From the NCBI GenBank assembly GCA_944390265.1, contig CALXPK010000043.1, positions 1 through 61,020 on the forward strand: 61,020 bases of DNA, in the 5' to 3' direction. The translations under genes and the position numbers were made by a program. The notes beneath the pieces are model-generated. The model was not told the DNA's origin, made no database searches, and saw only the letters and a list, made by a program, of their open reading frames with translations. Within the stretch, counting starts at the first letter, position 1. Each line of letters starts with the position of its first letter. This DNA comes from an uncultured Alphaproteobacteria bacterium (GTDB lineage Bacteria; Pseudomonadota; Alphaproteobacteria; RF32; CAG-239). Below, piece by piece: positions 6,774-29,474 of this stretch.

Positions 6774-6796
6774 GAAGTTCTCCCTTTTTCCGCCGA

Positions 6797-7807: not shown

Positions 7808-7829
7808 TTTTTGTTCCTCTCTTGTGCGC

Positions 7830-11744: not shown

Positions 11745-12917
11745 TCAGAGGTTGATGCCGTTCCAGTTCGGAATATCTCTTTCACAACTCATGGTAGATG
11801 AGTTCCATCTTCCGCCGATGAGTTGACAGCTTCTTTTTTCCTGACTGTAATCCGTTCCGCTCACCGATACTTCATCCAAGGTTCCGCCATCAATTGCCGA
11901 ATTGTTTTCGATGGCTTCTTCCACCTGATTGAGCGTGATGTCATTGGGGTTAACGGTTGTATCTGCCAAACCTAAGTTGTCCAGATTGTTGGTTTTTTCT
12001 TGATTATTACTTATGGCCTGATTAATTTTATCCACCGTTATGTTTGTCGGAGCGTTTGACGTATCAGACAATCCTAAATTATCCAAATTATTGGAAGTAT
12101 TTTTGTTTAACGTATTGGCAATATCCGCTTCGGTTATGCTGACCGGCGCATTTGAAGTATCAGCCAGCCCCAGATTGTCCAAACTATTGGTTTTGCTTTG
12201 GTTGGCGGCCAAAGCCTGATTAATTTTATCTACCGTTATGCCCGTCGGGTCATTGGTCGTATCGGCCAAGCCCAGATTATCCAAACTGTTTGCGGTGCTG
12301 CTTGATGTTGCGGTATTGGTTGTCGTTGTTTGATTTTCCATGGCGTTGATTAAATCATCTGCAGATAACTTCGGCGTATTTTTCAAATTTTCCATAACAT
12401 TTTCTATGTTTGTCGTTCCCGAGGTGCAACCCGTGCCGGTTCCGGGGACGCAATTTGTTTTTATATCGCTGCTATTGCTATTTTCAGAGGTGGCCGTGCC
12501 GTTGCTTCCAGGGTCTTTTTGCGAGGTCGGTGATGTGGTTGAGCCTTCCGTGGCCGTATAACTTCCCGAGGCATCCAGATAATGGCCATAGCCCAACATA
12601 TTGGCATATTGACCGGCTTTTCCCTCTTTGGTGGCTAAATAGTCTATCAACAAGCCGACATTGGCCACCAAAAACAATCCGATGGCAATGTTGGCAAACC
12701 ATTTCCAATTTATTTTTCCGAAAATGGCCGCAAAGGCAAAACCAATTAAACCAAAACCGGCAAGAATGAAAATCAGGGGACGCAAATCGTAAATTAACTT
12801 GGCAGCCTTATCTCTGACCGTACCCAGAACGTCTGCAGCATTGGCATCGCCGCTCCACAACACAATTGCCAAACAACAAAACATTGTCAGTAATATTGCA
12901 CGTTCCGGATGTTTCAT
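11745..12917 (-). CDS. VirB2/TrbC-like pilin domain (first ~100 aa) fused to a ~290-aa Ser/Thr/Asn-rich C-terminal extension with four ~34-aa repeats
   Basis: The N-terminus has a signal peptide plus two TM helices, and shares the FGKINWKW motif with the two short paralogs (GNINWKW, GKLDWKK). The short paralogs end 15-20 aa after TM2, whereas this one continues for ~290 aa. The extension has 4x (N/S)LDNLGL(A/S)DT.N.P..IT...I and two Cys pairs (NCVPGTGTGC; SCQLIGGRWNSSTMSC). Confidence 0.7.
   Translation of the reverse strand: MKHPERAILLTMFCCLAIVLWSGDANAADVLGTVRDKAAKLIYDLRPLIFILAGFGLIGFAFAAIFGKINWKWFANIAIGLFLVANVGLLIDYLATKEGKAGQYANMLGYGHYLDASGSYTATEGSTTSPTSQKDPGSNGTATSENSNSSDIKTNCVPGTGTGCTSGTTNIENVMENLKNTPKLSADDLINAMENQTTTTNTATSSSTANSLDNLGLADTTNDPTGITVDKINQALAANQSKTNSLDNLGLADTSNAPVSITEADIANTLNKNTSNNLDNLGLSDTSNAPTNITVDKINQAISNNQEKTNNLDNLGLADTTVNPNDITLNQVEEAIENNSAIDGGTLDEVSVSGTDYSQEKRSCQLIGGRWNSSTMSCERDIPNWNGINL
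11892..12293 (-). repeat. In-frame tandem coding repeat (4 copies of ~100 nt) inside the extended pilin gene
   Basis: The nucleotide motif GACAATCTGGGGCTGGC / TTGGATAATTTAGGATTG recurs on the coding strand. The peptide copies are SLDNLGLADTTNDPTGITVDKINQAL, SLDNLGLADTSNAPVSITEADIANTL, NLDNLGLSDTSNAPTNITVDKINQAI and NLDNLGLADTTVNPNDITLNQVEEAI. Confidence 0.85.
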
Positions 12918-12940: not shown

Positions 12941-13306
12941 CTATTTCAACGTATCTTCAATTTTCGGCGCATCGCCGCCGGCAATATAGGTTAAAATTCC
13001 GCCGGTCATACCAATGACCATCAGGCCGATGACAATGGCGCCCAACCATTTCCAGTTGATGTTACCGAAAAAGCCGCCGATGGCTACGCCGATGATGCCA
13101 AAACCGGCCACGACATAGATTATGTCGCGCATGCCTTTAAAAATTTCTATGCCTTTAGATATCAGATCGGCAAACAGACCGCCGCCCGAATAGGTTGACG
13201 TTACGGCAGCATCTGCGGCAAAAGCCGATGCCACGCATAAGACTGAAGAAAACAATAGTCCCCATAACAGTGTTATACTTATTTTCTTTATTCTCACGCT
13301 TAGCAT
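12941..13306 (-). CDS. VirB2/TrbC-like T4SS pilin paralog (121 aa)
   Basis: Signal peptide ...CVASAFAADA, followed by two hydrophobic helices separated by FGNINWKW. The size is typical of a pilin. Confidence 0.7.
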   Translation of the reverse strand: MLSVRIKKISITLLWGLLFSSVLCVASAFAADAAVTSTYSGGGLFADLISKGIEIFKGMRDIIYVVAGFGIIGVAIGGFFGNINWKWLGAIVIGLMVIGMTGGILTYIAGGDAPKIEDTLK

Positions 13307-13412: not shown

Positions 13413-13760
13413 CTATTGAGCTGAACTACTGAAAGTATCACCCAATTTTGTACCTTCGTTATCACCGGTAGCGTAGTCAACAATAGAACCGGCTGCCGCC
13501 AAAATGGCCAAGCCTACAGCCAACATTGAAAACTTTTTCCAATCCAACTTGCCGAAAATGGCCATGAAGGCCAAAACCACCAAACCGAAACCACCAACAA
13601 TGAAGATGATGCTTTTTACAGCCTTAAACACGGCAACGGCTTTGGTTTGAGCCGTATCAACCAAGTCCACGGCTTGTGCAAAGGCGGCATCGGTTGTGCC
13701 GAGCATGACAAACAAAGCCAAGCACAAAATGGTGCAAAGATTTTTCTTAATAAAACGCAT
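13413..13760 (-). CDS. VirB2/TrbC-like T4SS pilin paralog (115 aa), first gene of the operon
   Basis: Signal peptide MRFIKKNLCTILCLALFVMLGTTDAAFAQA, followed by two hydrophobic helices separated by FGKLDWKK. Confidence 0.7.
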   Translation of the reverse strand: MRFIKKNLCTILCLALFVMLGTTDAAFAQAVDLVDTAQTKAVAVFKAVKSIIFIVGGFGLVVLAFMAIFGKLDWKKFSMLAVGLAILAAAGSIVDYATGDNEGTKLGDTFSSSAQ

Positions 13761-14060
13761 AATTTTTCTCCTTATTCATCTAATTATCCATATCTATATA
13801 TAGAATAACCAAATTTTTCTTTTTTTTCCAGCATTTTTGTTATTACACCAAAAGAGTTAACATATTGTTTACGGGCAAATTTTTTTCTCGTAACAAAAAA
13901 TTCACAGTTTAGTTTTTTGTTTTTGTTGTTTTTTTCTCCCTTAAAAGACTTTTTCAAAATTGTGCTTCCGATAAAAGAATCCACAATTTTTGAGGTATTT
14001 TTTTTAACTTCTTGCCAAGAGTCGCATTTTGATTTATCTAGTTTTTTGAGGGGTTTTATT
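13761..14060. promoter_or_regulatory. AT-rich 300-bp divergent intergenic region between the T4SS pilin operon and the type IVb pilus operon
   Basis: No credible ORF. There are long T/A runs and an inverted repeat, CAAAATTGTG (13955-13964) and CACAATTTTTG (13982-13992). Promoters for both operons must lie here, but the exact sites were not determined. Confidence 0.4.
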
Positions 14061-15890
14061 ATGAAAAAAACAACGTTTGAATCTTTTTTATACAGCTTTG
14101 TTTTTTCTTTGTTTGCTATTTTTGTGGCTGACAAGATGTTTTTTTATACCCCTGACAAAGCTGCCTCCGATTTGAAAATCCCCGAAAAAAATATTGTTTT
14201 ATTCTTAAAAGACAGTGCATTACAGCCACAACGTTTGGCTTCGACCCCGACCAAAAAAATTGTTCTGTCTACGGTTGCAGATATTCCGGCGCCGCGTCCG
14301 AATGCCTCGATTGAAACCCCTGAAATGCCAAATGCATCACCAACAAACCTTGCTTTGCTTGATGAAGCGCCGTCGGCGTCGCAAACTCTGCCTGAAGAAC
14401 CTGCCCTTACAGATGACAGCGACAATGCGCTTATTCCGCTGGAAAGAAAAGAGCTTTCCAAAGTTCCGCCGCTGGAGATTTCACCGACAGAAGAAACTCC
14501 GGCGCCGCTTGTTTTGGCCGAAACGAGCCCTCTGCCCGAAGTCCGCACCGATGACAAACAACATGATGAAAAACAAAATGACGGCAATGACCTGCTCTTA
14601 AACAAAAAAGTGGTTCAACTTTCTCCCAAAACCTCAACTCCGATTGCGGTTGAAAATAGCCTTGTACCAACGGCTTCCAACCCCTCCGAACCCGACAAAA
14701 AAGAACAATCGGTGAAAATGGCGGCAAGGGCTGAAACCAAGCCGGCCCAAAAAGATGCTCCAAAGAAAATTTCTTTGTCCGAAAGTGCGGCAAAGATTGT
14801 GACGGCTCAAGCCAACGAACCGATGATGCTCATTCCCTTGGAGAGCAACAATCGACAACAATTGGCCGCCGCCGAGATTAAATCTGCGGCACAAGCCCGA
14901 CGCAATCAGGTGGCGCTTAATGCCAAAGACACGCCGATTGCCAGTATGAAGTCGGACAAGGTTTCCGATGAACAAAAAAACTCGGCGGTCAATCAAGAAA
15001 AAGTTTGGGAGAGCATGAAAGAGAAACAACAATCTTCCAATGATGACCCCTGGGTGGTGGCTAAGGGAAACAAATACCCCAATAACCAAATGCTTTTGGA
15101 TGATAAAAAATATAAAATCAGCGATGAAGAAGTGCAGAAAATGTTTAACACCCAAACATCTTCCGCCGATGCGTCGGATGAAAATATTCAGCTCGCCTCA
15201 AAGACCGTGGATAACCTGCTTATCCCCATTCCCGAAGATATTTTGAATGATGAAAATCTTACCCCTCAATTGATTTCATCACCCAAAAATCAGGAAATTA
15301 AAGAAGAGCTGGAAGCCAGAGGCTTAATCCGAAAAGAAGAAGAAAAAGAAGAGAAAGAAAAAACCGCCGATGAAAAGGGAAAAACTTCCGAGACGGCTTC
15401 CGACAAGGAATCCGGCATTTTGGACAGTTTGACTTCGTTGTTCTCCGACAACAAAGACAACACTCCCGAGGTGGGGGTCAACGAAGACCAAGATGAGGAA
15501 GAAAACTCTCTCTTTTCGGCTTTCAGCAGAAAACGCAGCCGTCTGATTTCTAAAATTTTGCCAACCGAAATCCGTTTGTCTTTTCAGCCCAATCGGGCCG
15601 AAATTTCCGGCCAAACGCTGAAATGGATTAAGGCCTTTGCCCAAAAAACCGCCGAAGAACCGAGCGTGGGCTTGGAGATCCGAATTGACGGCACAAGTTC
15701 TCCCCTCTTGCAACGCAGAAGGCTGAATTTGTTGCAAAATATTTTATTAAACGAAGGAGCCGCTCCCGAAAAAATTTCAACCGTCTTTACGGCCAGAGAG
15801 CCTAACTCGTTTATTTTGAGAACCGTTAGAATTAACAAGGAGATGATAAATATGCCGGCACAAAACAACAACCGATATATGCAATGGTAA
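14061..15890 (+). CDS. Membrane-anchored protein with a long Pro/Glu/Lys/Ser-rich low-complexity region and a possible OmpA/MotB-like C-terminal domain; first gene of the pilus operon
   Basis: Track ORF is 13917..15890. Preferred start is ATG 14061 (MKKTTFESFLYSFVFSLFAIFVADKMFF, one TM). The C-terminal ~110 aa (IRLSFQPNRAEISGQTLKWIKAF...GLEIRIDGTSSPLLQRRRLNLLQNILLNEGAAPEKIS) has the layout of OmpA-like domains, but key residues were not verified. Confidence 0.55.
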   Translation: MKKTTFESFLYSFVFSLFAIFVADKMFFYTPDKAASDLKIPEKNIVLFLKDSALQPQRLASTPTKKIVLSTVADIPAPRPNASIETPEMPNASPTNLALLDEAPSASQTLPEEPALTDDSDNALIPLERKELSKVPPLEISPTEETPAPLVLAETSPLPEVRTDDKQHDEKQNDGNDLLLNKKVVQLSPKTSTPIAVENSLVPTASNPSEPDKKEQSVKMAARAETKPAQKDAPKKISLSESAAKIVTAQANEPMMLIPLESNNRQQLAAAEIKSAAQARRNQVALNAKDTPIASMKSDKVSDEQKNSAVNQEKVWESMKEKQQSSNDDPWVVAKGNKYPNNQMLLDDKKYKISDEEVQKMFNTQTSSADASDENIQLASKTVDNLLIPIPEDILNDENLTPQLISSPKNQEIKEELEARGLIRKEEEKEEKEKTADEKGKTSETASDKESGILDSLTSLFSDNKDNTPEVGVNEDQDEEENSLFSAFSRKRSRLISKILPTEIRLSFQPNRAEISGQTLKWIKAFAQKTAEEPSVGLEIRIDGTSSPLLQRRRLNLLQNILLNEGAAPEKISTVFTAREPNSFILRTVRINKEMINMPAQNNNRYMQW

Positions 15891-15977
15891 TAAGTTGTTG
15901 CTTGCGCTTGATTATTTATTTTTCAGTATGTATGATAGGTAAAAAATATGACAAAATATTGCTTAGGAACCGCAAAA

Positions 15978-16634
15978 ATGATTAAAAAACAAAGTTTATT
16001 CTCGTTTTTATTCTGTTGCCTGATTTTGTCGGGATGTTCGGCTTTCAACCCTGCCGCTCAGCCAACTTCGGCTGCCAACGCCCCGCAACAGACAGGTGTT
16101 AATTCTCATCAAAACAGCATTCAGAATACGCCTCCCGTCAGCAATGATTTTGTTCAAAATACCGAAGTGGCCGCCGATTATAAAGAATATGGCGAAAGAA
16201 CACCCCGCGACCAGTTGGTGGTGCAAGGCGGTGCCGGAAGCAATTTATCTTCATCCATTCCGCCAACCATTGAGGATGAGGTTGTCGATTATGAAGAAAG
16301 CGTCCAAATCAGTGAGACCGAAGAAGTTTCCGAAAACCAAAATGCGGATAACCTAAGCGAAGATCCGGTTGAAGACTGGTTGGCCGAAGAAGGCAAAAGT
16401 TTGAAAACTTTGCTGACCGAATGGAGCGACCGCGCCGGTTGGAGACTGATTTGGAACACAAATCGAAACTATACCTTAACCGCAGGTGCCATGTTCAGAG
16501 GCCGTTTTGCCGATGTCAGCTCGGCTTTAATCCGCGCTTTTGCTCGCGCAAAACCGGCTCCGATTGCAACTTTCTATAAAGGAAACCGCGTCTTGGTCGT
16601 TGAGACTATGGAGGATGAAAATGCGTATGAATAA
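15978..16634 (+). CDS. pilL: PilL-like lipoprotein with TcpQ-type C-terminal domain (R64 nomenclature)
   Basis: Lipobox MIKKQSLFSFLFCCLILSGC. The C-terminus WLAEEGKSLKTLLTEWSDRAGWRLIWNTNRNYTLTAGAMFRGRFADVSSALIRAF...ATFYKGNRVLVV matches my memory of the toxin-coregulated-pilus Q / PilL domain. It lies directly upstream of the secretin. Confidence 0.6.
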   Translation: MIKKQSLFSFLFCCLILSGCSAFNPAAQPTSAANAPQQTGVNSHQNSIQNTPPVSNDFVQNTEVAADYKEYGERTPRDQLVVQGGAGSNLSSSIPPTIEDEVVDYEESVQISETEEVSENQNADNLSEDPVEDWLAEEGKSLKTLLTEWSDRAGWRLIWNTNRNYTLTAGAMFRGRFADVSSALIRAFARAKPAPIATFYKGNRVLVVETMEDENAYE

Positions 16635-18240
16635 TTATATCAAAACTGCCTTTGGGCTTTCCATTTCGGCCATTGTCGCCGCGTGCTCCATGTCAACGCA
16701 ACTTGATGCCGAAATTGAGCATGAGGTGAAAACCGCAACCGAACTGAAAGAGCAATCCAAAGTTCCAACTCAGGTTGCCCCAGAAGACGTGGTCCGCGTT
16801 AAAAATGATATTTGGCTCGGCGACAAGTCGGAAGTGGAATATAACGGCGAACCTCTGCCCAGCTATTTGGAGACCAAAGACGGAATCACTTTGGTCAGTA
16901 ACCGTCCGATTACGTTGTTTGAAGTCGGCGATATGATTAATAAGCTCACCTCCATTCAGGTGCGTTTTGCCAACCATCTCGAACAAGATGTTTTGAGCGT
17001 GGCCAAGGAAAACAAACCCGACCCGAACACCATTAATACCGATTGGACCGAACCCAACAAGATGTTGCTTTCTTACAAAGGTCCGTTGAGCGGCTTGCTG
17101 AACGAAGTGGCTTCTCGTTTCGGCATTTGGTGGAAATATGACAAGAATCAGATTTTCTTCTATAAATATGAAACCAGAACTTTCACCGTTTACAGCTTGC
17201 CGACTAAACCGTCTTTGCAGGTTAATATGGGCGGTGAATCTTCCGGCGAAAGCGGAAATGCTTCGGCAACTTTGACCTCCGGCGCCGAATTGGAATTGTG
17301 GTCTAATATTGAAAAAGCCATTCAATCCATGATTGGCGGGGAATCCAAACTCAGCGTTGATTCCGTCAACGGAACCGTGACCCTGACCGGAACCCCGATT
17401 GAGATTAAAAAAGTGGCTAAATATATTAATGAGCAAAATACGCGCTTGTCCAGACAAGTGGCTATCAGCGTTAAGATTTTGCAAGTGACGCTTTCCGATT
17501 CAGACCAATATGGTTTGGATTTGTCCGCTGGCTTTAACGATGGTAAAACCTCTTTGAATCTGGCTAGCCCGTCCGGTCTTTCCGATGAAATTGAGAAAAA
17601 CATCAATATGACCATTGCCCCCGGAAACTGGAACGTGACAACCTTTATTCAGGCTTTGTCGGAGAAAAACAATACCACGTTGGTGACCAGCGGTACGGTT
17701 ACAACGCTGAACAACAAACCGGCACCGATTCAGGTTACACGTAAGGAAAACTATATTTCCGAAATTACCAAAACCAACTCCGGAAGCTCTGACAGTAGCT
17801 ATGACTATGATATTTCTACCGAAACCGAAGAAATTGAAACCGGTTTTACGCTCAATGTGTTGCCGAGAATTATGGAACACGGCCGTTTGTTGATGATGTT
17901 CAACCTGACTTTGTCTGACCTGATTTCGCTTGAAAAAGTTTATTTGCAGACAAACGAAGATCCGACACAACCGGCTTCCGGCGAATATATTCAAAACCCG
18001 ATTGTGGAAACCAGAGGCTTCACCCAAGAAGTGGCTTTGAAATCCGGCGAATCCTTGATTTTGAGCGGTTATGAACGTGTGGAAAGCGAAGCCAAAAAGT
18101 CCGGCGTGGGTTCTGCAGACAACTCTTTGCTCGGCGGTACGGCCGTTGCTACCAAAGACCGCAGCCTGTTGGTCATTATCTTAACGCCGGTGGTTTTGGA
18201 ATCTCCTTTGAATCCGGAATCCAGAATGAAAACTTATTAA
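16621..18240 (+). CDS. pilN: PilN-family type IVb pilus secretin lipoprotein (539 aa)
   Basis: Start is ATG 16621, 6 nt after GGAGG. Lipobox LSISAIVAAC. The C-terminal secretin core reads TTLVTSGTVTTLNNKPAPIQVT...GFTLNVLPRIMEHGRLLMMFNLTLSDL...PIVETRGFTQEVALKSGESLILSGYE. Confidence 0.8.
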   Translation: MRMNNYIKTAFGLSISAIVAACSMSTQLDAEIEHEVKTATELKEQSKVPTQVAPEDVVRVKNDIWLGDKSEVEYNGEPLPSYLETKDGITLVSNRPITLFEVGDMINKLTSIQVRFANHLEQDVLSVAKENKPDPNTINTDWTEPNKMLLSYKGPLSGLLNEVASRFGIWWKYDKNQIFFYKYETRTFTVYSLPTKPSLQVNMGGESSGESGNASATLTSGAELELWSNIEKAIQSMIGGESKLSVDSVNGTVTLTGTPIEIKKVAKYINEQNTRLSRQVAISVKILQVTLSDSDQYGLDLSAGFNDGKTSLNLASPSGLSDEIEKNINMTIAPGNWNVTTFIQALSEKNNTTLVTSGTVTTLNNKPAPIQVTRKENYISEITKTNSGSSDSSYDYDISTETEEIETGFTLNVLPRIMEHGRLLMMFNLTLSDLISLEKVYLQTNEDPTQPASGEYIQNPIVETRGFTQEVALKSGESLILSGYERVESEAKKSGVGSADNSLLGGTAVATKDRSLLVIILTPVVLESPLNPESRMKTY

Positions 18241-18252
18241 AAGGGAAAAAAC

Positions 18253-19530
18253 GTGCTAGACGACGCAAAATTTGCAGAAAATGAGGTCGAGACAGCTCCT
18301 CGCACTTGGGGAACAAGCATTTTTGTCGATGGACAAACTTATGCAACAAGTTTGTTTTGGCAGCCTTTGCAAAACCAAGATGAATCCATTGCCGAGATTG
18401 CCGAGGCTTCGGAAGGCATTTTGGAAGGGGCCGATTTGTTCTGTATCAAACCCGGTAAGGCACCTCAGTTCGGTATTTGCGTCTCGCAAGAGGGATACAA
18501 AAAAGGACAAATGGTGGCTGCCGTGGCTTTGTCAACGGCTTTGGCTGACCGCACCTCTTTTATTGCCGTTTTTAAAGTGGCCGAAGGTTGGTGGTATACT
18601 TGCGTCAGAAACGATATCATCCTCTCTGACGGCGATATGCTGTTTTTGAACGAAGAAGATGCCAGAAATCAATTTACTTCCATGTTGGCCGTGCCGGATT
18701 GGGGCAGAAAAATTGCGCCGGCCGAATGGCATATTGAAGATACCGAAGATATTAGCTTGGCACAACTGTTGCAACGCGGCACTTCGGCCAAGCTGCAAAA
18801 AATTAAAGGTTTGCGCGGAGCCAAATTGCTGATGGTGGTCGGTATTTCCGTTGCCGTCGGACTTTGGTTGCTCTCTAACCTGATTGATGCATTGTTGTTT
18901 ACACCGGTCAAACGTCCGGTGGTGGTGCCGGTGCAGCCCAAAGTGGTGAAAAAAGTTGAGCAAGTGCCGATTATCAAACCTTGGGAAACCTTGAAAAATC
19001 CATCGCAGATTATGACCCAATGCGTTGAAAATATTGAAAAGCTAAAACGGATTTTGCCGCCAGGATGGAAAATCGGTGAGTTTTCTTGCTCGCAGACCGG
19101 AGTGTCCACTTCTTGGAAAAGAGAGGTTGGGCGAATGTCTTGGATTAAAAAATCGCTTGATGAATCTGGCATTGATTTTGCTTATCGGACTTTTTCCGAA
19201 GACGGAAATGTTTTGTCGGTCGGAATTAATTATACAAAGATTGATACGCTGACTTCGCCTCCGACGACAAGTTTGCCCAATTTGCGCGAAATTGTGAACA
19301 ATCTTTTTCAAAGCATTGGCGAGAAAGTGGCTCTGAGCAACGGAACTTTTACTCAAAATATTGGGGAAAAAGAACGTCGGACATACAGATATCTCGGTTT
19401 TAGGTTCTCTTCCGAATATAATCCTTTGGTTTGGAACGGTTTATTAACAAAATTTTCAGGACTTGATATTAAAGTAATCAGATATGATGGTAGCACTTGG
19501 AATTATGAGGGAGCAATTTATGCGTTGTGA
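18253..19530 (+). CDS. pilO: PilO-like pilus assembly protein (R64 PilO / PilO2-type, 425 aa)
   Basis: GTG start 6 nt after AAGGGA. The cytoplasmic N-domain has the FWQPL motif, with a single central TM (AKLLMVVGISVAVGLWLLSNLIDALLF). Size and position after the secretin match R64 PilO. Confidence 0.5.
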   Translation: MLDDAKFAENEVETAPRTWGTSIFVDGQTYATSLFWQPLQNQDESIAEIAEASEGILEGADLFCIKPGKAPQFGICVSQEGYKKGQMVAAVALSTALADRTSFIAVFKVAEGWWYTCVRNDIILSDGDMLFLNEEDARNQFTSMLAVPDWGRKIAPAEWHIEDTEDISLAQLLQRGTSAKLQKIKGLRGAKLLMVVGISVAVGLWLLSNLIDALLFTPVKRPVVVPVQPKVVKKVEQVPIIKPWETLKNPSQIMTQCVENIEKLKRILPPGWKIGEFSCSQTGVSTSWKREVGRMSWIKKSLDESGIDFAYRTFSEDGNVLSVGINYTKIDTLTSPPTTSLPNLREIVNNLFQSIGEKVALSNGTFTQNIGEKERRTYRYLGFRFSSEYNPLVWNGLLTKFSGLDIKVIRYDGSTWNYEGAIYAL

Positions 19531-21046
19531 TATTAAAAAAATCTTATCTACTTCGGCTTTGGCTTTGGTTTTGAGCCTCGGCTATGTTAATTTGTGCTCT
19601 GCTCAAGGTGTTGTCAGCTTAAGCAACGATGCCAAAGCTAACAATTCTGCAGATGAAATTCCCAATGAAATTTCTCTTTTCGGCGATGATTCTTCAACTG
19701 TCAAAGTCATCACTCCGGCAAAATCGACATCAGGCGTTAAGTCGGCTGCCGAATTGTTGGGAAACAAGGCTGCCAAAGATGCAAAAGCTGCTCCGGCCAA
19801 CGCGAACGGCGTTAAGTCGGCCGCGGAACTCTTGGGTGGCAAACAAAACGGCGTTAAGTCGGCCGCAGAACTCTTGGGTAACAAGGCCGCGCCTAAAACC
19901 AAAGAGGCTCCGGCTAATGCAAACGGTGTCAAATCGGCCGCAGAGCTCTTGGGTGGCAAGCCAAACGGCGTTAAATCTGCTGCAGAACTCTTGAACGCAA
20001 ATAAGGCCCAAACAGAAGAAAAGCCAAATCAAGCTGCCGATCAAAGTCAGGTCATAAGTGCTAAGGCCATTCAAACCCAAACTTTGGGTAATGTGCAGAT
20101 GGTTAAAGATGCCGAAGAGAGTGTTTTTGACCAAATGTCCGATTTGGAAAAACAAACCGCGATTTTGAATTTGGAATTGAAAAAAGAAAAAGTTAAAAGC
20201 GACATTGAATCTTTGAAAGCCGTGCAAGCCAAAGCTCGTCAGGAAGAACAGGCTCGCCAAGAAGAAGAAAAACGCAAAGTTCAAGAATGGAAAAATGCCG
20301 AAAAACGCAAAATTTTGCAAGAGCAACAAAAGCTGAAAGAGCTGGAAATTGCTTTGGAAAAACAACGTCAGGAAAGTTTGTTGAACAGCTACAAAAACCA
20401 GATGTTGATTGCCAAACAAGATGCCATTAAAACGCAGGCTGAACTCTACAAAGAAATCAGCTCACTCAGAGATGAAAAACAAGCACTCATCAGCGATTTT
20501 AAGGGACGTTTCGTACAATTGACACGTTTGGCCGACAAAGCAACCAATGATGCCATCCGCGTCAGAGATAATTATGCCAAAACCATTTCTGATTTGCAGA
20601 CACAAATTTCCATTCTCAAAGCCAGACTTGAGGCTAACAAAGAGCAAAATCCGTTTGCCGACGGCAAAACCGGCGATGGTGCGCCTGAGGTAAATGATGT
20701 GCGTATCAGCGATTTGTACGCCGTGATGGAAATCAGAGGCCAAGGAAACAATATGATTGCCAAACTGATTAATGAAAACGGTTATCCGTTTATGGTCAAA
20801 GTCGGAACGGCTTTGCAAAGCGGCCATATTATTGATGAAATTACACCGACTTATGTTCGTGGCGACAAAGGCGGATATAAAGACTATTTGTATTTCTCTG
20901 CCGGCGGTATTTTGGACAAAGAGCCGATTCACAATGAAGATATCAGCGTTAAGGCGGTAACCGATAATGCTAATAAGACTGCCGTTCCTGCCGCCGTGAT
21001 GTCAAACGGAATCCCCGGTGTGGCCGCTGAAATGACTATCCGATAG
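19520..21046 (+). CDS. PilP-like protein with an N-terminal tandem peptide repeat and central coiled coil (508 aa)
   Basis: Start is ATG 19520 after GAGGGA. It has a signal peptide, 5x GVKSAAELL(G/N), and a K/E/Q coiled coil. The C-terminal block ISDLYAVMEIRGQGNNMIAKLINENGYPFMVKVGTALQSGHIIDEITPTYV resembles the PilP/GspC HR-type domain. Confidence 0.5.
   Translation: MRCDIKKILSTSALALVLSLGYVNLCSAQGVVSLSNDAKANNSADEIPNEISLFGDDSSTVKVITPAKSTSGVKSAAELLGNKAAKDAKAAPANANGVKSAAELLGGKQNGVKSAAELLGNKAAPKTKEAPANANGVKSAAELLGGKPNGVKSAAELLNANKAQTEEKPNQAADQSQVISAKAIQTQTLGNVQMVKDAEESVFDQMSDLEKQTAILNLELKKEKVKSDIESLKAVQAKARQEEQARQEEEKRKVQEWKNAEKRKILQEQQKLKELEIALEKQRQESLLNSYKNQMLIAKQDAIKTQAELYKEISSLRDEKQALISDFKGRFVQLTRLADKATNDAIRVRDNYAKTISDLQTQISILKARLEANKEQNPFADGKTGDGAPEVNDVRISDLYAVMEIRGQGNNMIAKLINENGYPFMVKVGTALQSGHIIDEITPTYVRGDKGGYKDYLYFSAGGILDKEPIHNEDISVKAVTDNANKTAVPAAVMSNGIPGVAAEMTIR
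19733..19993 (+). repeat. In-frame tandem coding repeat encoding five GVKSAAELL units
   Basis: GGCGTTAAGTCGGC(T/C)GC(C/G/A)GAA(T/C)T(G/C)TTGGG recurs five times. The higher-order unit GVKSAAELLGNKAA..APANANGVKSAAELLGGK.N is itself duplicated. Confidence 0.85.
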
Positions 21047-21055
21047 GATTTAAAC

Positions 21056-22735
21056 ATGGCTCCTGATAACGAGACGGAAGAAGAAAAAAACACTGAACCT
21101 TCACCGGAAATTCAAGCAACATCCGGCGGAGGTTCTCCTGCTTCTGAACCTCAAGATGAAATTACACATTCTCTCGGCCAATTGGAACTTTATTTCCAAA
21201 ACGGACGCAAGTTGTTGACCGTTCCCGGCGGAACGCTCAACATCAACGATGATACTCGCCGTTTGCTGGCGCTCTTTTCCGACGGAAGTTTTCTTGTTTC
21301 CGAAGCCCATAAGTTTGACGGACGCGTTTTGAGCTTTGAGGTCTTGGCTCGCAAGAAGAAATTGATGATTGCCAAGCCCGTTTATGTCAGCCAAAACGAG
21401 TTGAACGCCATTTATAATTATGCCGAACGTAATGCCGTTGATATTGAAACCGATGAAGATTTGGCCTCTTTGCAAATGCAAAAAGACTTTGTCAACGTGG
21501 TTACCCGCGCCGCCGAAAAAAAAGTTTCCGATATTCACGTCGTGGTGGCTGACAGTACGCAAATTATGTTTCGTATTAACGGTATGATGTCCATTGAAAT
21601 GGAATATAACAAAGACTGGGGCGAAGCCTTTGTTCGTGCCGCTTTTGCTTCGGCTGATATTTCCGATTCAAACTATGCGCAAAATGAGTTTCAAGGCGCG
21701 CAAAAGCTCGGTTCTACCCCATTGAGAGGCTCTAAAGGCAAGTTGATGCTTCCGCATAACGTGCTCGCTATTCGTTTGCAATTTAACCCGATTGCTTTCG
21801 GTTCTCAATATTTGGTTATGCGCCTTTTGTATGCCGATGATAACCCCAACGGAAGCGGCGATTTGTCCTCTTTGGGTATGACCGAGTATGAAGAAAATTT
21901 GTTTTTCAGACTTCGTTCCGTACCAACCGGCGTCAGCATCGTATCGGGGCCGACCGGTAGCGGCAAAAGTACAACCTTGCAAAGAAATATGATCAAACTT
22001 TTGCAAGAGAAAAATTATGAAATTAACCTCATTACCGTGGAAGACCCGCCGGAATATCCTATTCCCGGAGCAAGGCAAATGCCGGTGACCAATGCCAACA
22101 CCGAAGAAGAAAAAGATGAGCAATTTACAAAAGCATTGTCCGCAGCTTTGCGTTCCGATCCGGATGTGATGATGGTCGGTGAGATTCGTACCCTTTCAGC
22201 CGCTCAGCTGACTTTTAAAGGCGCTTTGTCCGGCCACGGTATGTGGACAACCTTGCACGCCAACTCTGCTCCGGCCATTATTCCGCGTTTGCGCGATATG
22301 GGCGTAGAAACATTTAAACTTTGCGACCCTGAATTGGTTAAAGGCCTTATCGGACAACGCTTGTTTAGAAAACTTTGTCCGCACTGCCGTATCTCGGTTA
22401 AAGAACAGCTTAATATGCCTTCCGTTCAACGTTTGAAAGTTGCTTTGGGCGATTTTGGTATTGAAAATACTTATGTTCGCGGTCCGGGATGCAAATATTG
22501 CGACGGAACCGGAATTAAGGGGCGAACCAGCATTCAGGAGATTATTCTGCCCGATGCAACCTTTTTGGAGCTCATTATTAAAGGTGAAACCCGAAAAGCC
22601 ATTGACTATTGGACCAGTGATTTGGGCGGAAGAACCATGAAAGATGCCGCAATTGAGCGTATGCTTAAAGGTTATATTGATTTGGACGAAGTGGAGCGTT
22701 GGTGCGGCTTAATGGACCAACGTCCAGCTTATTAG
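21056..22735 (+). CDS. pilQ: Type IV pilus assembly ATPase, GspE/PilB family (R64 PilQ-like, 559 aa)
   Basis: Walker A SGPTGSGKSTTL, Asp box/Walker B ...DPDVMMVGEIR, His box TGHGMWTTLHAN, and a C-terminal tetracysteine CPHC...CKYCDGTG. Confidence 0.88.
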   Translation: MAPDNETEEEKNTEPSPEIQATSGGGSPASEPQDEITHSLGQLELYFQNGRKLLTVPGGTLNINDDTRRLLALFSDGSFLVSEAHKFDGRVLSFEVLARKKKLMIAKPVYVSQNELNAIYNYAERNAVDIETDEDLASLQMQKDFVNVVTRAAEKKVSDIHVVVADSTQIMFRINGMMSIEMEYNKDWGEAFVRAAFASADISDSNYAQNEFQGAQKLGSTPLRGSKGKLMLPHNVLAIRLQFNPIAFGSQYLVMRLLYADDNPNGSGDLSSLGMTEYEENLFFRLRSVPTGVSIVSGPTGSGKSTTLQRNMIKLLQEKNYEINLITVEDPPEYPIPGARQMPVTNANTEEEKDEQFTKALSAALRSDPDVMMVGEIRTLSAAQLTFKGALSGHGMWTTLHANSAPAIIPRLRDMGVETFKLCDPELVKGLIGQRLFRKLCPHCRISVKEQLNMPSVQRLKVALGDFGIENTYVRGPGCKYCDGTGIKGRTSIQEIILPDATFLELIIKGETRKAIDYWTSDLGGRTMKDAAIERMLKGYIDLDEVERWCGLMDQRPAY

Positions 22736-22754
22736 TTTTTTTCATGAGGAAAAA

Positions 22755-23885
22755 ATGGCAGAGGGAAAAGATAAAAGAAATTCTATAAACTCCATTCAAA
22801 GAGCAATGCGTCATTTGAACGTTGTTGAAGAATATTATGCCAAAATGATTTGTAATTTTTCGAATGAAGCACGCTTAAAACTCTATAAAAAAATTGCTTC
22901 TTTGATGAAAAACCGCTTTTCTTTGATGAGCGCTTTGGATATGTTGCATGATAGTGCCAGTGACGGCGGGAAAAGCCCCGGAGAGCCGATGGCCATTGCC
23001 ATTGCTTGTTGGGCCAGAGCTTTGAATAACGGTTTGACTTTTTCCGATGCTTTGAAAGGTTGGGCTCCCGACAGAGAGCGTTTGATGCTTTCCGTGGGTG
23101 ACGTTTCTGACCTTGAGGGGGCTTTGCTTAACCTTATCCGCGTGACCGAAGGTTCTACCAAAATGGTGCGACCGATTATCGGGGCTATTGCTTACCCTTC
23201 TTTTTTGTTTATGATGGCGGTGTTGATTATTTACGGTATCGGCGTTTATATGGTGCCGCCGATGCTTGATGCCGCACCGCGTACCGTGTGGACCGGTATG
23301 GCGCGCGATTTGGTAGACTTGTCCAACTGGATTAAGGAATATTGGTTGGTGGCCTTCAGCGCTTTGCCGGTGGTTATGCTGTTGATTTATTCCACCATCA
23401 GCATTTGGACCGGTCGTATTCGGGCTTTTGTTGATAATTTTCCGCCTTATTCGCTTTATAAGGTTTTTGTCGGAATCAGCTGGCTGCTTGCTCTTTCGGC
23501 TTTGGTCAAAGGCGGTACGCCGGTTTCTACCGCACTCAGAGCCTTGAGACGCGATGCCAGCCGCTATTTGAAAGAACGTATTGATAAAACACTGGTCTTT
23601 ATTAATAACGGTGACAACCTGGGCGTGGCTTTGCAAAAAACCAAACTGGATTTTCCCGATAAGGAAATTATTGCCGATTTGAAAATTTATTCCGAGTTGG
23701 ATAATTTTGAAGAAGCCTTGGAATCTTTGGCCAATGAATGGCTGGAAGAATCCGTCTATCTGATTGAACAAAAAGCGGCTTTGTTAAACATGGTGGCCAT
23801 TTTGTCCGTGGCTGCCGTGATTGCTTGGGCCGTTATGGGTACCTTTGCCATGCAAGACCAAATTACCAACCAAATGGGAGCTTAG
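22755..23885 (+). CDS. pilR: GspF/PilC-family inner-membrane platform protein (R64 PilR-like, 376 aa)
   Basis: It has a duplicated helical cytoplasmic domain plus three TM segments (AIAYPSFLFMMAVLIIYGIGVYMV; VAFSALPVVMLLIY; LLNMVAILSVAAVIAWAVMG). It lies directly after the ATPase. Confidence 0.8.
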   Translation: MAEGKDKRNSINSIQRAMRHLNVVEEYYAKMICNFSNEARLKLYKKIASLMKNRFSLMSALDMLHDSASDGGKSPGEPMAIAIACWARALNNGLTFSDALKGWAPDRERLMLSVGDVSDLEGALLNLIRVTEGSTKMVRPIIGAIAYPSFLFMMAVLIIYGIGVYMVPPMLDAAPRTVWTGMARDLVDLSNWIKEYWLVAFSALPVVMLLIYSTISIWTGRIRAFVDNFPPYSLYKVFVGISWLLALSALVKGGTPVSTALRALRRDASRYLKERIDKTLVFINNGDNLGVALQKTKLDFPDKEIIADLKIYSELDNFEEALESLANEWLEESVYLIEQKAALLNMVAILSVAAVIAWAVMGTFAMQDQITNQMGA

Positions 23886-23886
23886 G

Positions 23887-24450
23887 ATGAACTTTGGAAA
23901 AAAAATGATGCCTATCTTTCAAAAAAACTCCAAGATTTTGCTCATCTTGGGCTTGATTTTGATTATCGGGCTCGGGTTGGCTTTTAGGCTCAAGCCTGAT
24001 AAAAAAATGACAAATTCGGGGCAACAAGTGGCGATTTTGATTGAAAATGTGCGCAATTTCTATAAAAATAAACCTAGTGCTTGGGGGCTGAACAGCTTTT
24101 CGGCCGTTGAAAACAAAATTGTGCCGCAAAATATGCTCTTGGGTCGGCAGATTAAAAACAGTTTGGGCAAAGATGTGCTTTTGGGATCTGATTATCTCGG
24201 AAATACGGTTATGCCGGGAGGACGCTTGTTTGCCATTACTTACAAGAATCTCAGCCATGAAGAGTGTGTGGATTTGGCAACCTTTCCTTTTGCGGAAAAA
24301 GTTATAATTACCATTGATAATATGCAAATTATTAATGATAAAGTTTCTACATTCAGTTGGGGAAGCGAAAATGCCTTGCCCATTAGCAAAAATGCCGCTT
24401 TGAAGGCTTGCGGAGAAAACAATGATATCCTTTGGAATATATACCTATAA
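23887..24450 (+). CDS. Pilin-fold paralog with a non-canonical N-terminus (187 aa)
   Basis: Start is ATG 23887, 6 nt after GGGAG. The globular part aligns by eye with the two prepilins: IENVRNFY/INIRTAF, IVPQNML/IVPADML, ITYKNLSHEECVDLAT/IKFDGLGKETCTSLAS, and KACGENNDILWNIYL/TNCGNANSTNAITWEYY. The N-terminus MNFGKKMMPIFQKNSKILLILGLILIIGLGLAF lacks the G/xxxxE prepilin site. Confidence 0.6.
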   Translation: MNFGKKMMPIFQKNSKILLILGLILIIGLGLAFRLKPDKKMTNSGQQVAILIENVRNFYKNKPSAWGLNSFSAVENKIVPQNMLLGRQIKNSLGKDVLLGSDYLGNTVMPGGRLFAITYKNLSHEECVDLATFPFAEKVIITIDNMQIINDKVSTFSWGSENALPISKNAALKACGENNDILWNIYL

Positions 24451-24539
24451 ACGAAAGATATATATCTAATGCCAATCTTGTTTAGCTTTTATTAATTATA
24501 TATAATTATAATATCAAAGATGAAAAAATGGAGGGTAAA

Positions 24540-25097
24540 ATGAACATGCTTAATAAAATAGAACAATCCGGGCGATCCATGGTGGAGATGCTCGGCGTGC
24601 TTGCGATTATCGGGGTGCTTTCCGTGGGTGGTATTTCCGGTTATTCTAAAGCCATGGCTAAATATAAATTGACTAAAGCTCAAGACCAGATGTCTATGCT
24701 CTTGATTAATATTCGTACCGCTTTTTCCGGTTCTCCGAGTTATCAAGGCTTGAACAACACCACCGCCGTGCAATTGAACATTGTGCCGGCTGATATGTTG
24801 CCGGGCGGCTTGGGCGTTTCGGTCGGTGCCGCTTCCGGTATCGTGAATGCTTTCTCCGGTGCCGTGACCATTACCGCTACCGAAAACAACCAACACTTCC
24901 AAATTAAATTTGATGGTTTGGGTAAAGAAACTTGCACCAGTTTGGCTTCTTCCGACTGGGGTACTGAAGGCTTGGATTCTATGACCGTTAATGCTAAGAC
25001 TTATAATCAAAACGAATTGCCGGTCAGCGCAATCAGTGCCGTGACTAACTGCGGAAACGCTAACTCTACCAACGCTATTACTTGGGAATATTACTAA
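24540..25097 (+). CDS. pilS: Type IVb prepilin, copy 1 (R64 PilS-like major pilin)
   Basis: Leader MNMLNKIEQSG with cleavage context G/RSMVE (Glu at +5), and a hydrophobic helix MLGVLAIIGVLSVGGISGY. It has two Cys (ETC...NCG) bounding a C-terminal D-region. The start could also be 24528 or 24546. Confidence 0.8.
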   Translation: MNMLNKIEQSGRSMVEMLGVLAIIGVLSVGGISGYSKAMAKYKLTKAQDQMSMLLINIRTAFSGSPSYQGLNNTTAVQLNIVPADMLPGGLGVSVGAASGIVNAFSGAVTITATENNQHFQIKFDGLGKETCTSLASSDWGTEGLDSMTVNAKTYNQNELPVSAISAVTNCGNANSTNAITWEYY

Positions 25098-25136
25098 GTG
25101 ATATGTTAATGATGCAGAAGCTGAAGGAGATTGAAA

Positions 25137-25697
25137 ATGACAATACTTAACAGAATAGAACAATCCGGACGATCCATGGTGGAAATGCTTGGTGTGCTTG
25201 CGATTATCGGCGTGCTCTCGGTTGGTGGTATTTCCGGTTATTCCAAAGCAATGGCTAAATATAAATTAACCAAAGCTCAAGACCAAATGGCCATGTTGTT
25301 GATTAACATTCGTACCGCTTTTTCCGGTTCTCCGAGTTATTCCGGCTTGGACAACAGCACGGCCGTGCAGCTGAACATTGTGCCGGCTGATATGTTGCCG
25401 GGCGGCTTGGGCGTTTCGGTCGGTGCCGCTTCCGGTATCGTGAATGCTTTCTCCGGTTCCGTGGTTATTGCCACAGCCGAAAACGGCCAACATTTCAAAA
25501 TCACTTTTAACGGTTTGGGTAAAGAAACTTGCACCAGTTTGGCTTCTTCCGACTGGGGTACTGAAGGTTTGGACTCTATGCAAATTAACAGCAGTGCCGC
25601 TCACAATCAGGCCAATTTGCCGATTGGCGCCATTACTGCTGTCGGTGAGTGTGTGAATGACAACTCAACCAACTCCATTACTTGGGAATATTACTAA
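25137..25697 (+). CDS. pilS: Type IVb prepilin, copy 2 (tandem paralog)
   Basis: Leader MTILNRIEQSG/RSMVEMLGVLAIIGVLSVGG behind GAAGGAG. It is nearly identical to copy 1 until the last ~40 aa, which lie between the conserved Cys pair. Confidence 0.8.
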   Translation: MTILNRIEQSGRSMVEMLGVLAIIGVLSVGGISGYSKAMAKYKLTKAQDQMAMLLINIRTAFSGSPSYSGLDNSTAVQLNIVPADMLPGGLGVSVGAASGIVNAFSGSVVIATAENGQHFKITFNGLGKETCTSLASSDWGTEGLDSMQINSSAAHNQANLPIGAITAVGECVNDNSTNSITWEYY

Positions 25698-25724
25698 TTC
25701 CCGCTTAAAAACCCTCCTTTTGAT

Positions 25725-25757
25725 AAAAGCTCTCGCTCCCGAGAGCTTTTATTTTGC
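25725..25757 (+). terminator. Rho-independent terminator after the pilin genes
   Basis: AAAAGCTCTCG (25725-25735), loop CTCC, CGAGAGCTTTT (25740-25750), followed by ATTTTGCTTT. Confidence 0.75.
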
Positions 25758-25830
25758 TTTGGTTTACTCTTTTTTTACATAAAGATTTTATGATACGCTT
25801 TATGATAAAATTTCTTCGTTGGATAAAAAT

Positions 25831-26796
25831 ATGGTAAAACTTAATTCTATTCGATTTTCTGATTTGTATATTACGCCGGAAAAAACTTTTTTTGTTCCCG
25901 ATGGGCGCACCGAAAACGGTTTGGCCATTATCAAACCCGAAGATTTGGATGTTTTTTACACTTTGCTTGAAGAAACTTGGGACGGTGAAAACCCCAGTTA
26001 TTCTGTTCTTTATGAAAATATTTTTTATCGCATTGAGCGCTCGGTGACCATCTATGGTCCGCAGTTTTGCTGCCGTAAAATGCCGGAAAAAGTGCCGCCG
26101 ATTGCCGCCTTGAATTTTCCGCGTGAGTTGGTCAGACATCTTTTGTCTTTGAGCAATGCCAGCGGCCTGATTTTGTGGTCCGGTCCGACCGGCGCCGGTA
26201 AAACAACCTCTATCTCGGCTTTGTTGAAAGAATATCTGACCATGGAAGGCGGCTTTGCTTATACAATTGAAGATCCTTCCGAGATGCCGCTTGACGGAAT
26301 TTATAAATCGCTTAAAGGCGGTTTGGGCTTGTGCAAACAAACCCAACCCATCCACGATAACTGGGGAGATTCTTTGAAGTCGGCTCTGCGCTCCAAACCA
26401 AGATATATTCTCGTCGGCGAGATTAGAACGCCGGAAACAGCCAGTCAGGTTTTGCGCGCGGCAACCTCGGGACACTTGGTTTTGTCTTCCATTCATGCCA
26501 ACAACATCACCGATGCCATTAACTCGGTTATCAAATATGCCTCTTCCACCACCATGAGTGAAGAACTGGCCTATGACCTTTTTTCTCGCGGAATGCTCGG
26601 CGTGTTGCACCAAACCTTGTCCGGGGTTGATAACAAAAAACCGCTTGTCAGCTATTTGTTTGCCAATCCCGACACCACCAAAGGCGATCAGGTTCGCGGT
26701 ATTATCAAAACCGGAAATCTTAATTTGGGCACTTCCATTGAAACACAAATGACGCGTATGCGTAAAGGCATGAGCCTTTTTCCGGATTTGTCTTAA
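25831..26796 (+). CDS. PilT/DotB/VirB11-superfamily hexameric secretion ATPase (321 aa)
   Basis: Walker A WSGPTGAGKTTS, IEDPSE, Walker B/Asp box KPRYILVGEIR, and His box TSGHLVLSSIHANN, which is PilT-like GHLV. The track start at 25819 is TTG, so I prefer ATG 25831. Confidence 0.75.
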   Translation: MVKLNSIRFSDLYITPEKTFFVPDGRTENGLAIIKPEDLDVFYTLLEETWDGENPSYSVLYENIFYRIERSVTIYGPQFCCRKMPEKVPPIAALNFPRELVRHLLSLSNASGLILWSGPTGAGKTTSISALLKEYLTMEGGFAYTIEDPSEMPLDGIYKSLKGGLGLCKQTQPIHDNWGDSLKSALRSKPRYILVGEIRTPETASQVLRAATSGHLVLSSIHANNITDAINSVIKYASSTTMSEELAYDLFSRGMLGVLHQTLSGVDNKKPLVSYLFANPDTTKGDQVRGIIKTGNLNLGTSIETQMTRMRKGMSLFPDLS

Positions 26797-28047: not shown

Positions 28048-28740
28048 ATGGTGGCCGATAATGATTTTATTGATGAGATGATTCCTTATGTGGAGTTTGC
28101 CGATAATGCAAATGAGCGCACGCCTTGCGTGTTGGTGCTTGACTGCTCCGGCTCAATGCGCGGCGAACCCATAAAGCAACTTAATGCCGGCCTCAAAGCT
28201 CTGGAAAAAGAGCTCAAAGAAGATATTGATGCCAGCTCTCGCGTGCAACTGCTCATCATCAAGGCTTTCGGCAAAGATGAGGCCGTGGTTTCTTCCGACT
28301 GGACCGATGCCATGAATTTTACCGCTCCGACGATGGAAGCCGGCGGCTTGACTCCGCTCGGCAAAGCCATGGAATTGGCCTTGCAAAAAATTGAGGAACA
28401 AAAATGTTTGTATGACAGTTGCGGAATTACATCCAAAAGACCTTGGATTTTTCTTATCAGCGATGGCGAACCAACCGACTATGATTGGGAGATTGTGGCC
28501 GAAAAATGCCGCTATGCTCAGCAAAACAAAAAAGTGGTGGTTCATGCCGTGGGGACTCAAGATGCCAATTTGGAAAAACTGGCCAAGTTTTCTTTGATGG
28601 CTCCCAAACGCCTCACCGGCTTGAAATTTACCGAATTTTTCTTGTGGCTCAGCCGCTCGGTTTCTTGCATTTCCAAAGCGGCGCCCAATGTGCCAGACTT
28701 GCTTGACGATACCGGAGATTGGGATGAAGAAAACCAATAA
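28048..28740 (+). CDS. vWA-domain protein, TerY-like (230 aa)
   Basis: MIDAS motif VLVLDCSGSMRG, later GGLTPLG, and LISDGEPTD. It has TerY/TerF-type vWA architecture without a signal peptide. Confidence 0.8.
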   Translation: MVADNDFIDEMIPYVEFADNANERTPCVLVLDCSGSMRGEPIKQLNAGLKALEKELKEDIDASSRVQLLIIKAFGKDEAVVSSDWTDAMNFTAPTMEAGGLTPLGKAMELALQKIEEQKCLYDSCGITSKRPWIFLISDGEPTDYDWEIVAEKCRYAQQNKKVVVHAVGTQDANLEKLAKFSLMAPKRLTGLKFTEFFLWLSRSVSCISKAAPNVPDLLDDTGDWDEENQ

Positions 28741-29470: not shown

Positions 29471-29474
29471 ACTC

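Follow-up and report, generated by a model that had tools for sequence, protein, structure and literature searches.

A type IVb pilus cluster beside a relaxase-less VirB secretion system in the chromosomes of uncultured gut Alphaproteobacteria

What a pilus of the kind found on conjugative elements might do in a chromosome, back to back with a VirB-type secretion system, is the question raised by contig CALXPK010000043.1 (assembly GCA_944390265.1), which derives from an uncultured alphaproteobacterium. The window analyzed here is this whole contig of 61,020 bp, and it holds the right-hand two thirds of a ∼39-kb chromosomal locus shared as a fixed feature by a clade of uncultured Alphaproteobacteria from the gut. 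The interpretation favored here, which is held to be probable, if only just, is that the locus combines a domesticated P-type type IV secretion system (T4SS) lacking a relaxase with a retractile type IVb pilus, the two serving cell contact.

Listing of open reading frames (ORFs) together with Pfam and NCBIfam scans placed a type IVb pilus cluster, in the gene order of R64 and PAPI-1, on the plus strand at 14058-26796. An earlier reading of the sequence alone (the original prediction) had named six pilus genes followed by pilins, and these were found in the place and order given. The first of them encodes a PilL-like lipoprotein with a TcpQ domain (15948-16634; PF10671, E = 2.7e-16; lipobox LSGC). 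It is followed by a PilN-family lipoprotein secretin (16615-18240; TIGR02520, E = 3e-81; PF00263; lipobox VAAC), for which the TIGR02520 score of 273.5 bits lies slightly below the cutoff of 287.65 and the nearest solved structure is BfpB (7e-55). PilO (18253-19530) was recognized above cutoff (PF06864, E = 3.9e-13, 49.5 bits). The match for PilP was weak, the 520-residue protein concerned (19484-21046) being assigned from its position and from a low-scoring hit to TIGR03021 (E = 0.0018, 19.3 bits against a cutoff of 34.65). This protein contains NGVKSAAELLG repeats and a coiled coil; a 117-bp tandem repeat in its gene (19733-19993, plus strand; 2.2 copies, 80% matches) encodes NGVKSAAELLG(G/N)K units. 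The GspE-family assembly ATPase, which corresponds to PilQ of R64 and is BfpD-like (21056-22735; T2SSE, PF00437, E = 2.3e-67), has BfpD as its nearest solved structure (5.5e-97), and the GspF-family, PilR-like platform protein (22755-23885; PF00482, E = 3.2e-24) is 33% identical to PilR of Bosea. Three PilS/bundlin-type pilin genes (23887-25697) were identified by PF08805 PilS (50.4 and 48.6 bits) and PF05307 bundlin. One of the pilins is divergent, and the other two are paralogues with the leader ...QSG|RSMVE.

Two further genes, one at either end of the cluster, had been overlooked. The first gene of the pilus operon (14058-15890) encodes a bitopic protein of 610 residues that belongs to no Pfam or NCBIfam family and comprises an N-terminal transmembrane (TM) segment, a disordered central stretch, and a C-terminal domain of ∼110 residues that hardly varies. 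A profile search of the PDB with this family gave zero matches. By eye the C-terminal domain looked OmpA-like; a Foldseek search with a low-confidence single-sequence model (predicted local distance difference test score, pLDDT, of 58) gave weak matches to IF3-C and OmpA-like folds, with a best E value of 0.0076. The last gene (25831-26796) encodes a PilT/DotB-like hexameric ATPase of 321 residues (TIGR01420, E = 2.2e-30), which matched the solved structures of PilT (7e-21) and DotB (1.7e-18) and is 69-93% conserved within the clade. This protein is probably the retraction motor of the pilus. Its identification as the VirB11 of the neighboring system was excluded: the real VirB11 follows virB10 in relatives and is just 26-28% identical to it, which makes them two distinct motors.

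Judged by gene content and order, the pilus is a member of the R64/PAPI-1/bundle-forming pilus (BFP) type IVb branch. As had been predicted, the long and medium ORFs of the window that were scanned contained no Pfam match to a prepilin peptidase or lytic transglycosylase, nor to a relaxase, coupling protein, or integrase. Neither of the first two families was present among the called pilus-cluster genes of relatives. General Pfam scans of the window ORFs revealed nothing of the kind of PilV, a shufflon, or Rci, for which no targeted search was made.

The VirB2/3/4/8-type system that had been placed beside the pilus was confirmed on the minus strand by three matches to PF04956, a VirB3-like protein, TIGR00929, and a fragment matching PF04335. 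The first gene of the virB operon encodes a VirB2 pilin (13413-13760; PF04956, E = 2e-12, 47.6 bits). It is followed by a second VirB2-like pilin (12941-13306; PF04956, E = 1.5e-4, below cutoff) with a signal peptide and two TM segments, and by a third of 390 residues (11745-12917; PF04956, 30.5 bits, residues 6-85) that carries a Ser/Thr/Asn-rich repeat extension of 290 residues. The extension is built of ∼30-residue repeats (NSLDNLGLADTSNAP...) and has a Cys-containing end. VirB2 fusions at the same position in relatives range from 681 to ∼1700 residues (L001:7495-9540, L013:5354-9568, L017:5038-9549, and L034:4422-9551), and a large domain appended to a T-pilin in this manner is unusual. 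A 96-residue protein with two TM segments (11261-11551) has no Pfam match and was assigned as VirB3-like from its position, size, and topology; it is 36% identical to the ORF that precedes VirB4 in Loktanella. The VirB4 ATPase itself (8839-11271; TIGR00929, E = 3.6e-116) has TrwK of R388 as its nearest solved structure (1.2e-45).

Five secreted helical proteins of 235, 388, 242, 336, and 309 residues occupy the virB5/virB6 position (4175-8759, minus strand). All have signal peptides and none is polytopic. Their median identities are 25-53%, they are often undetectable between species in which VirB4 is 80% identical, and no similarity to the genes at that position in plasmid modules was found by tblastn. 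The sole hint of a VirB5 is a weak TrbJ match of the 309-residue protein (E = 0.0026); a PDB profile search with the family of this protein returned coiled-coil noise alone. Beyond them is a secreted coiled-coil protein of 1248 residues (514-4260, minus strand) that has a signal peptide, no TM segment, and a conserved C-terminal PYCAxY motif. It occurs at the same place in all relatives, evolves fast (median identity 26%), and gave no Pfam, NCBIfam, or PDB match except coiled-coil noise. The 235-residue protein (4175-4882, minus strand) is homologous to the N-terminal ∼230 residues of a single large protein in distant relatives (L014:16390-20097) and the 1248-residue protein matches the C-terminal half of the same protein, so that the pair looks like a split or partial duplication. 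At its left edge the window contains the N-terminal 159 codons of virB8 (1-477, minus strand; PF04335, E = 4.7e-5, 23.8 bits), the first of two copies in relatives. Given that the window is the entire contig and ends inside this gene, the VirB system has been shortened by assembly and not by biology.

The continuation of the VirB operon was read from loci of other genomes and metagenomes. In these relatives the order is VirB8, a VirB7-like lipoprotein of 62-77 residues with a lipobox, a second VirB8, a CagX/VirB9 protein of ∼530 residues, a beta-flower/RHS-repeat protein of 1100-1350 residues (L075:12313-15753; also L160, L162, and L164), a giant VirB10, and VirB11. The VirB10 is ∼1500 residues long, with beta-flower repeats preceding the C-terminal TrbI domain (L075:15686-20218), and its size is reminiscent of CagY of H. 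pylori. Most database copies are fragmentary because the beta-flower repeats break many assemblies. VirB11 is 40-42% identical to the VirB11 proteins of plasmids. Two arrangements follow it: engB, yidC, rnpA, rpmH, dnaN, and dnaA in one, and an acidic protein of 768-876 residues, a helix-turn-helix regulator, and polytopic proteins in the other. The acidic protein, which stands directly after virB11 (L160:13302-15608 and L162:12519-15149), has 20% Asp plus Glu, is largely of low complexity, belongs to no Pfam family, and is a candidate secreted substrate. Also downstream of virB11, a 434-residue lipoprotein (L162:15974-17278) without a family match has a C-terminal motif (...VIMIVPRLIR) that appeared secretin-like by eye. 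On this gene content, with the core taken from relatives, the secretion system is of the P-type (VirB, MPF-T, where MPF denotes mating-pair formation) with a VirB7-VirB9-VirB10 core, VirB8, and VirB11.

The tight juxtaposition of the two modules, and a core operon that lacked a polytopic VirB6-like gene in every relative examined, might be explained by one physical hybrid machine in which pilus parts replace the VirB6, VirB1, and VirB5 missing from the operon. This is considered exceedingly improbable. VirB7, VirB9, VirB10, VirB8, and VirB11 are all present, so no secretin is needed; VirB6 candidates lie downstream in some relatives; and, as described below, the modules are separable in 12 species.

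The setting of the locus is chromosomal. To the right of 26.8 kb the window contains a phosphoribosyltransferase gene, AhpC, a VWA-PP2C-kinase triad, rpsA, cmk, rpsB, tsf, a gyrB/parE-type topoisomerase subunit gene, and tRNAs, and housekeeping genes abut both ends of the locus, the left end being read from relatives. The GC content across the block is 42-46%, the same as that of the flanks, with no step. No nucleotide match was found among 72,556 plasmids. Neither an integrase nor a tRNA borders the locus, the nearest tRNA being 9.4 kb away. In the ∼45 kb formed by the window and its relatives, neither VirD4 nor a relaxase was detected by Pfam or by tblastn with plasmid VirD4.

Relatives of the window VirB4, at 66-93% identity, are present in ∼72 GTDB species representatives, which are metagenome-assembled genomes labeled as uncultured Alphaproteobacteria or proteobacteria. 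They come from human, ruminant, deer, and mouse guts, and the sequence of the window itself occurs in chicken gut metagenomes. One 2.6-kb contig binned as "uncultured Lachnospiraceae" (L073, CAYVUJ010000281.1) carries a VirB4 fragment 91% identical to that of the window and is probably a binning error. Synteny of the pilus cluster and its right flank extends to relatives with a 72-78% identical PilT-like protein. The locus was found in all species sampled and its right-hand flank is kept in the relatives examined; by this distribution it is chromosomal and vertically inherited.

A chromosomal apparatus had been preferred to the MPF of a mobile element in the original prediction, and the housekeeping flanks and vertical inheritance across the ∼72 species-level genomes agree with that choice. 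A conventional conjugative element would have been indicated by a flanking I-type or G-type T4SS with relaxase and integrase; what was found is the rest of the VirB system on the left and core chromosome on the right. That the locus still moves DNA, as an integrated conjugative element or the remnant of a plasmid whose relaxase and coupling protein are encoded elsewhere, is very improbable. Such a remnant would account for a VirB lineage nearest to conjugative plasmid modules and for the presence of an R64-type pilus, which normally assists conjugation. Set against these points are the ∼45 kb devoid of relaxase, VirD4, integrase, or flanking tRNA, the occurrence of the locus in each sampled species with a conserved right-hand flank in the relatives examined, and a base composition like that of the surrounding genome. 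With DNA-transfer genes not nearby and the locus fixed in the chromosome, the two modules resemble an apparatus for cell contact more than they do a mobile element.

Whether the two modules belong together was approached with a tblastn synteny matrix of 58 informative species. The pilus cluster adjoins virB2 in 46 of these (79%), including species with as little as 66% VirB4 identity. In 43 the pilus operon and virB2 diverge, which is the arrangement of the window; in three the pilus operon lies upstream in the same orientation, with the major pilin gene beside the virB promoter. More distantly, sister lineages with 50-52% VirB4 identity have chromosomal islets among housekeeping genes in which virB3-virB4 stand apart from virB11, and one with 41% identity has virB3, virB4, a 60-residue ORF, virB8, and virB9 beside lon, ahpC, cmk, and rpsA. 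The nearest plasmid VirB4 proteins (35-38% identity) are encoded in ordinary conjugation modules, where genes for a MobA/MobL relaxase, a DnaB-like helicase, and VirD4 also occur.

The divergent intergenic region between the operons (13761-14057) is 297 bp long and contains two sets of conserved blocks, which alignment revealed to be better conserved than the adjacent coding sequence. The virB-proximal set consists, on the minus strand, of TGAATTTTTTGTTAC at about -147 from virB2 (∼13888-13902) and the near-palindrome GTAAACAATATGTTAAC at about -115 (13856-13872). Both are at the same positions relative to virB2 in ∼40 loci, exactly or with 1-2 changes at 78-80% VirB4 identity, and both are retained in all three arrangements of the pilus and virB operons. 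Each has one copy in the window and no further copies were found there; together they are probably the operator of a regulator. By contrast, the pilus-proximal blocks (13998-14021 and others) are present only where the pilus operon is adjacent. Because the virB motifs stay with virB2 and the pilus blocks with the pilus, the spacer is two back-to-back promoter modules and not one shared switch. Thus, of the ∼300-bp shared divergent control region proposed originally, the divergent spacer was upheld and the sharing was not.

Several of these observations weigh against a pilus and a secretion system that act together. In 12 of the 58 species the pilus cluster is elsewhere: the virB operon is preceded by ORFs taken to be housekeeping genes (ATP synthase b, luxS, apt, cmk, and rpsA), and tblastn detected no pilus genes near it. 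The promoter modules of the two operons are separable and lend no support to co-regulation. A search for transcripts turned up no usable RNA run, and one run of unspecified type contained fragments only. The evidence that the pilus and VirB machines would cooperate is their synteny. None of the six secreted accessory proteins could be placed in a recognizable family by Pfam, NCBIfam, or tblastn. VirB6 candidates were seen downstream only, in two relatives: a protein of 652-736 residues with 6-8 TM segments in both L160 and L162, and in L160 also a 434-residue protein with a weak TrbL match. Finally, genes for a coupling protein, VirB6, a prepilin peptidase, or indeed a relaxase may lie in other parts of these genomes.

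The main alternative is that the modules are neighbors for historical reasons only, the pilus serving adhesion, biofilm formation, or DNA uptake and the VirB system being unrelated to it, each dispensable to the other. The separation of the modules in a fifth of species and the possession of their own promoters, with promoter-proximal motifs that travel with their own operon, make this explanation plausible, and the virB islets of the sister lineages have no pilus cluster within 10 kb. It is nevertheless regarded as a possibility of lower probability than paired function, given that 79% of informative species keep the modules adjacent, some of them with VirB4 no more than 66% identical, and that adjacency outlasts inversion in the three tandem species. 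The same type of pilus is, moreover, a T4SS accessory elsewhere, in R64 and PAPI-1 (PMC3548315).

Conservation across the locus, expressed as median identity to the window across relatives, is uneven. Values were highest for VirB4 (80%), PilQ (79%), PilR (79%), and the PilT-like ATPase (78%), intermediate for VirB3 (67%), PilN (65%), and VirB2 copies 1 and 2 (56%), and lowest for the pilins (33-50%), the 610-residue protein (37%), the PilP-like protein (36%), and the secreted accessory proteins (25-37%, often undetectable). That the motors are so well kept while the exposed parts change fast suggests machinery at work on the cell surface against changing targets.

Chromosomal MPF-T systems without a relaxase have been turned to other functions on repeated occasions (Guglielmini et al., PMC3548315), and the Trw system of Bartonella, which translocates no protein, uses amplified copies of VirB2 and VirB5 to build variable pili (PMC4676284). 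It is on these precedents and on the analogy with Trw that the locus is read as a cell-contact apparatus. By that analogy, the three virB2 paralogues and the hypervariable secreted proteins would fit a Trw-like adhesion T4SS. The pilus would make and, if the PilT-like ATPase retracts it, tighten contact with a target cell or surface, and the VirB machine would then work over a short distance, whether by forming a variable adhesive pilus like that of Bartonella Trw or by injecting effectors. The VirB module would descend from alphaproteobacterial conjugative plasmids, having lost relaxase and coupling protein in cis and gained extra virB2 and virB8 copies, the giant virB10, and fast-evolving secreted proteins. 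The simplest history would be that a plasmid-type MPF-T was domesticated in an ancestor and later elaborated in the gut clade.

A role for the locus in competence is improbable. Under such a scheme, a retractile pilus and secretin would draw in DNA, which a VirB system without a relaxase, resembling ComB, would carry across the envelope. The locus is indeed without relaxase and coupling protein, like ComB of H. pylori (PMC3548315). A secretin and a PilT-like ATPase are the usual uptake hardware, but genes for ComEA, ComEC, and DprA are not nearby. Furthermore, virB11 is kept here, whereas ComB is not known to include VirB11, and amplified virB2, the giant virB10, and hypervariable secreted proteins suit surface interaction.

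A stronger form of the cell-contact interpretation, in which pilus and relaxase-less VirB system are a single two-stage apparatus that catches and then docks or injects, and are the key lifestyle organelle of a lineage with reduced metabolism, is doubtful. Were it correct, such an apparatus would imply an epibiotic, predatory, or host-cell-attached life for a group known mainly from sequence surveys. No literature joining RF32, which is probably the GTDB lineage of the clade, or gut Alphaproteobacteria with secretion systems was found among the papers searched. The record of thin pili is confined to some of the I-type and G-type systems (PMC3548315); here an R64-type thin pilus that has a retraction-type ATPase in addition accompanies a domesticated VirB system in the chromosomes of dozens of species. 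The locus would be one more independent case in which a conjugation machine has taken on a new role. It has unusual features in the VirB2 fusions of up to ∼1,700 residues, the 1,500-residue VirB10 with beta-flower repeats, and the duplicated VirB8, and it offers a testable handle on how poorly understood gut bacteria meet other cells.

Some neighboring features were also recorded. The genes for the VWA protein, PP2C phosphatase, and Ser/Thr kinase (28048-30953, plus strand) are directly to the right of the pilus cluster and syntenic in relatives (L155, L156, and L157). The VWA protein is 85-90% identical, above most pilus genes, and the triad may be a signaling module tied to the pilus. Ankyrin-repeat proteins are encoded near secretion genes in the window (47617-48198, minus strand) and in a sister lineage (L167:346-1362); proteins of this kind from other Alphaproteobacteria are frequently substrates of a T4SS and exert their effect inside eukaryotic cells. 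An rpsB leader RNA (RF01815, 51.9 bits) at 55305-55399 on the minus strand, upstream of rpsB-tsf, is an ordinary housekeeping feature.

Comparison with known systems places the pilus closest in organization to the R64 (IncI1) thin pilus and the pilL2-pilM2 cluster of PAPI-1, with which it shares the PilL(TcpQ)-PilN-PilO-PilP-PilQ-PilR-PilS order, PilP by a weak match and by position, a PilN-family lipoprotein secretin, and PilS-type pilins. In those systems the pilus likewise lies beside a T4SS, but the partner is I-type or G-type, whereas here it is VirB/MPF-T, a difference already remarked in the original prediction. A PilU peptidase and a PilT transglycosylase were not found here, and PilV, the shufflon, and Rci were unseen, without a targeted search; the window cluster has in addition the 610-residue first gene and the PilT-like ATPase. 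R64 and PAPI-1 pili are on conjugative elements, while the window locus is chromosomal, vertically inherited, and without relaxase.

The BFP of enteropathogenic E. coli provides the nearest solved relatives, BfpD and BfpB, together with a matching bundlin-family pilin and a second, PilT-like ATPase to which that of the window is comparable (BfpF). It differs in gene order, in having the BfpP prepilin peptidase and BfpH transglycosylase that were not found here, and in being plasmid-borne with no adjoining T4SS; the PilL-, PilO-, and PilP-type accessory genes belong to the window cluster. Type IVb clusters of Bosea pANAM02 and Thalassospira xiamenensis M-5 have the same order, with TcpQ, PilN, PilO, PilQ, and PilR 27-40% identical to those of the window. 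After PilR, the Bosea cluster has a second ATPase that is 34% identical over the full length to the window PilT-like ATPase, and the Thalassospira cluster is accompanied by DotD/TraJ-type (I-type) genes and a prepilin peptidase. Both clusters are plasmid-borne and neither adjoins a VirB system.

For the VirB system, the closest plasmid VirB4 (35-38%) and VirB11 (40-42%) proteins are those of Microvirga pMVF16-3, an Erythrobacter aureus plasmid, and a metagenomic relative. These MPF-T modules, arranged MobA/L-B2-B3-B4...B11-VirD4, have the same core order, B2-B3-B4...B8-B9-B10-B11, but include the MobA/MobL relaxase, DnaB-like helicase, and VirD4, a single virB2 and virB8, and a virB10 of normal size, with no pilus cluster. 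The rvh system of Rickettsiales is likewise alphaproteobacterial and chromosomal, with two virB8 genes and the local order B8-B7-B8-B9-B10-B11, and its scattered virB islets are paralleled in the sister lineages of the window; it differs in keeping VirD4 and multiple giant VirB6 copies and in having no associated type IVb pilus. A special kinship with rvh, suggested by the B8-B7-B8 order, found no support: both VirB8 copies best match VirB8 of Bartonella, and no Rickettsia RvhB8 chain was among the hits.

The best functional analogue is the Trw system of Bartonella. There is no close sequence kinship beyond the MPF-T core, the accessory proteins of the window cannot be recognized as homologues of VirB5 or VirB6, and no pilus cluster lies alongside Trw. 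The Trw locus is not known to include a coupling protein and retains virB11. Like the locus described here, it is chromosomal, derives from a conjugative MPF-T system, and combines amplified VirB2 with variable secreted components at the VirB5 position.

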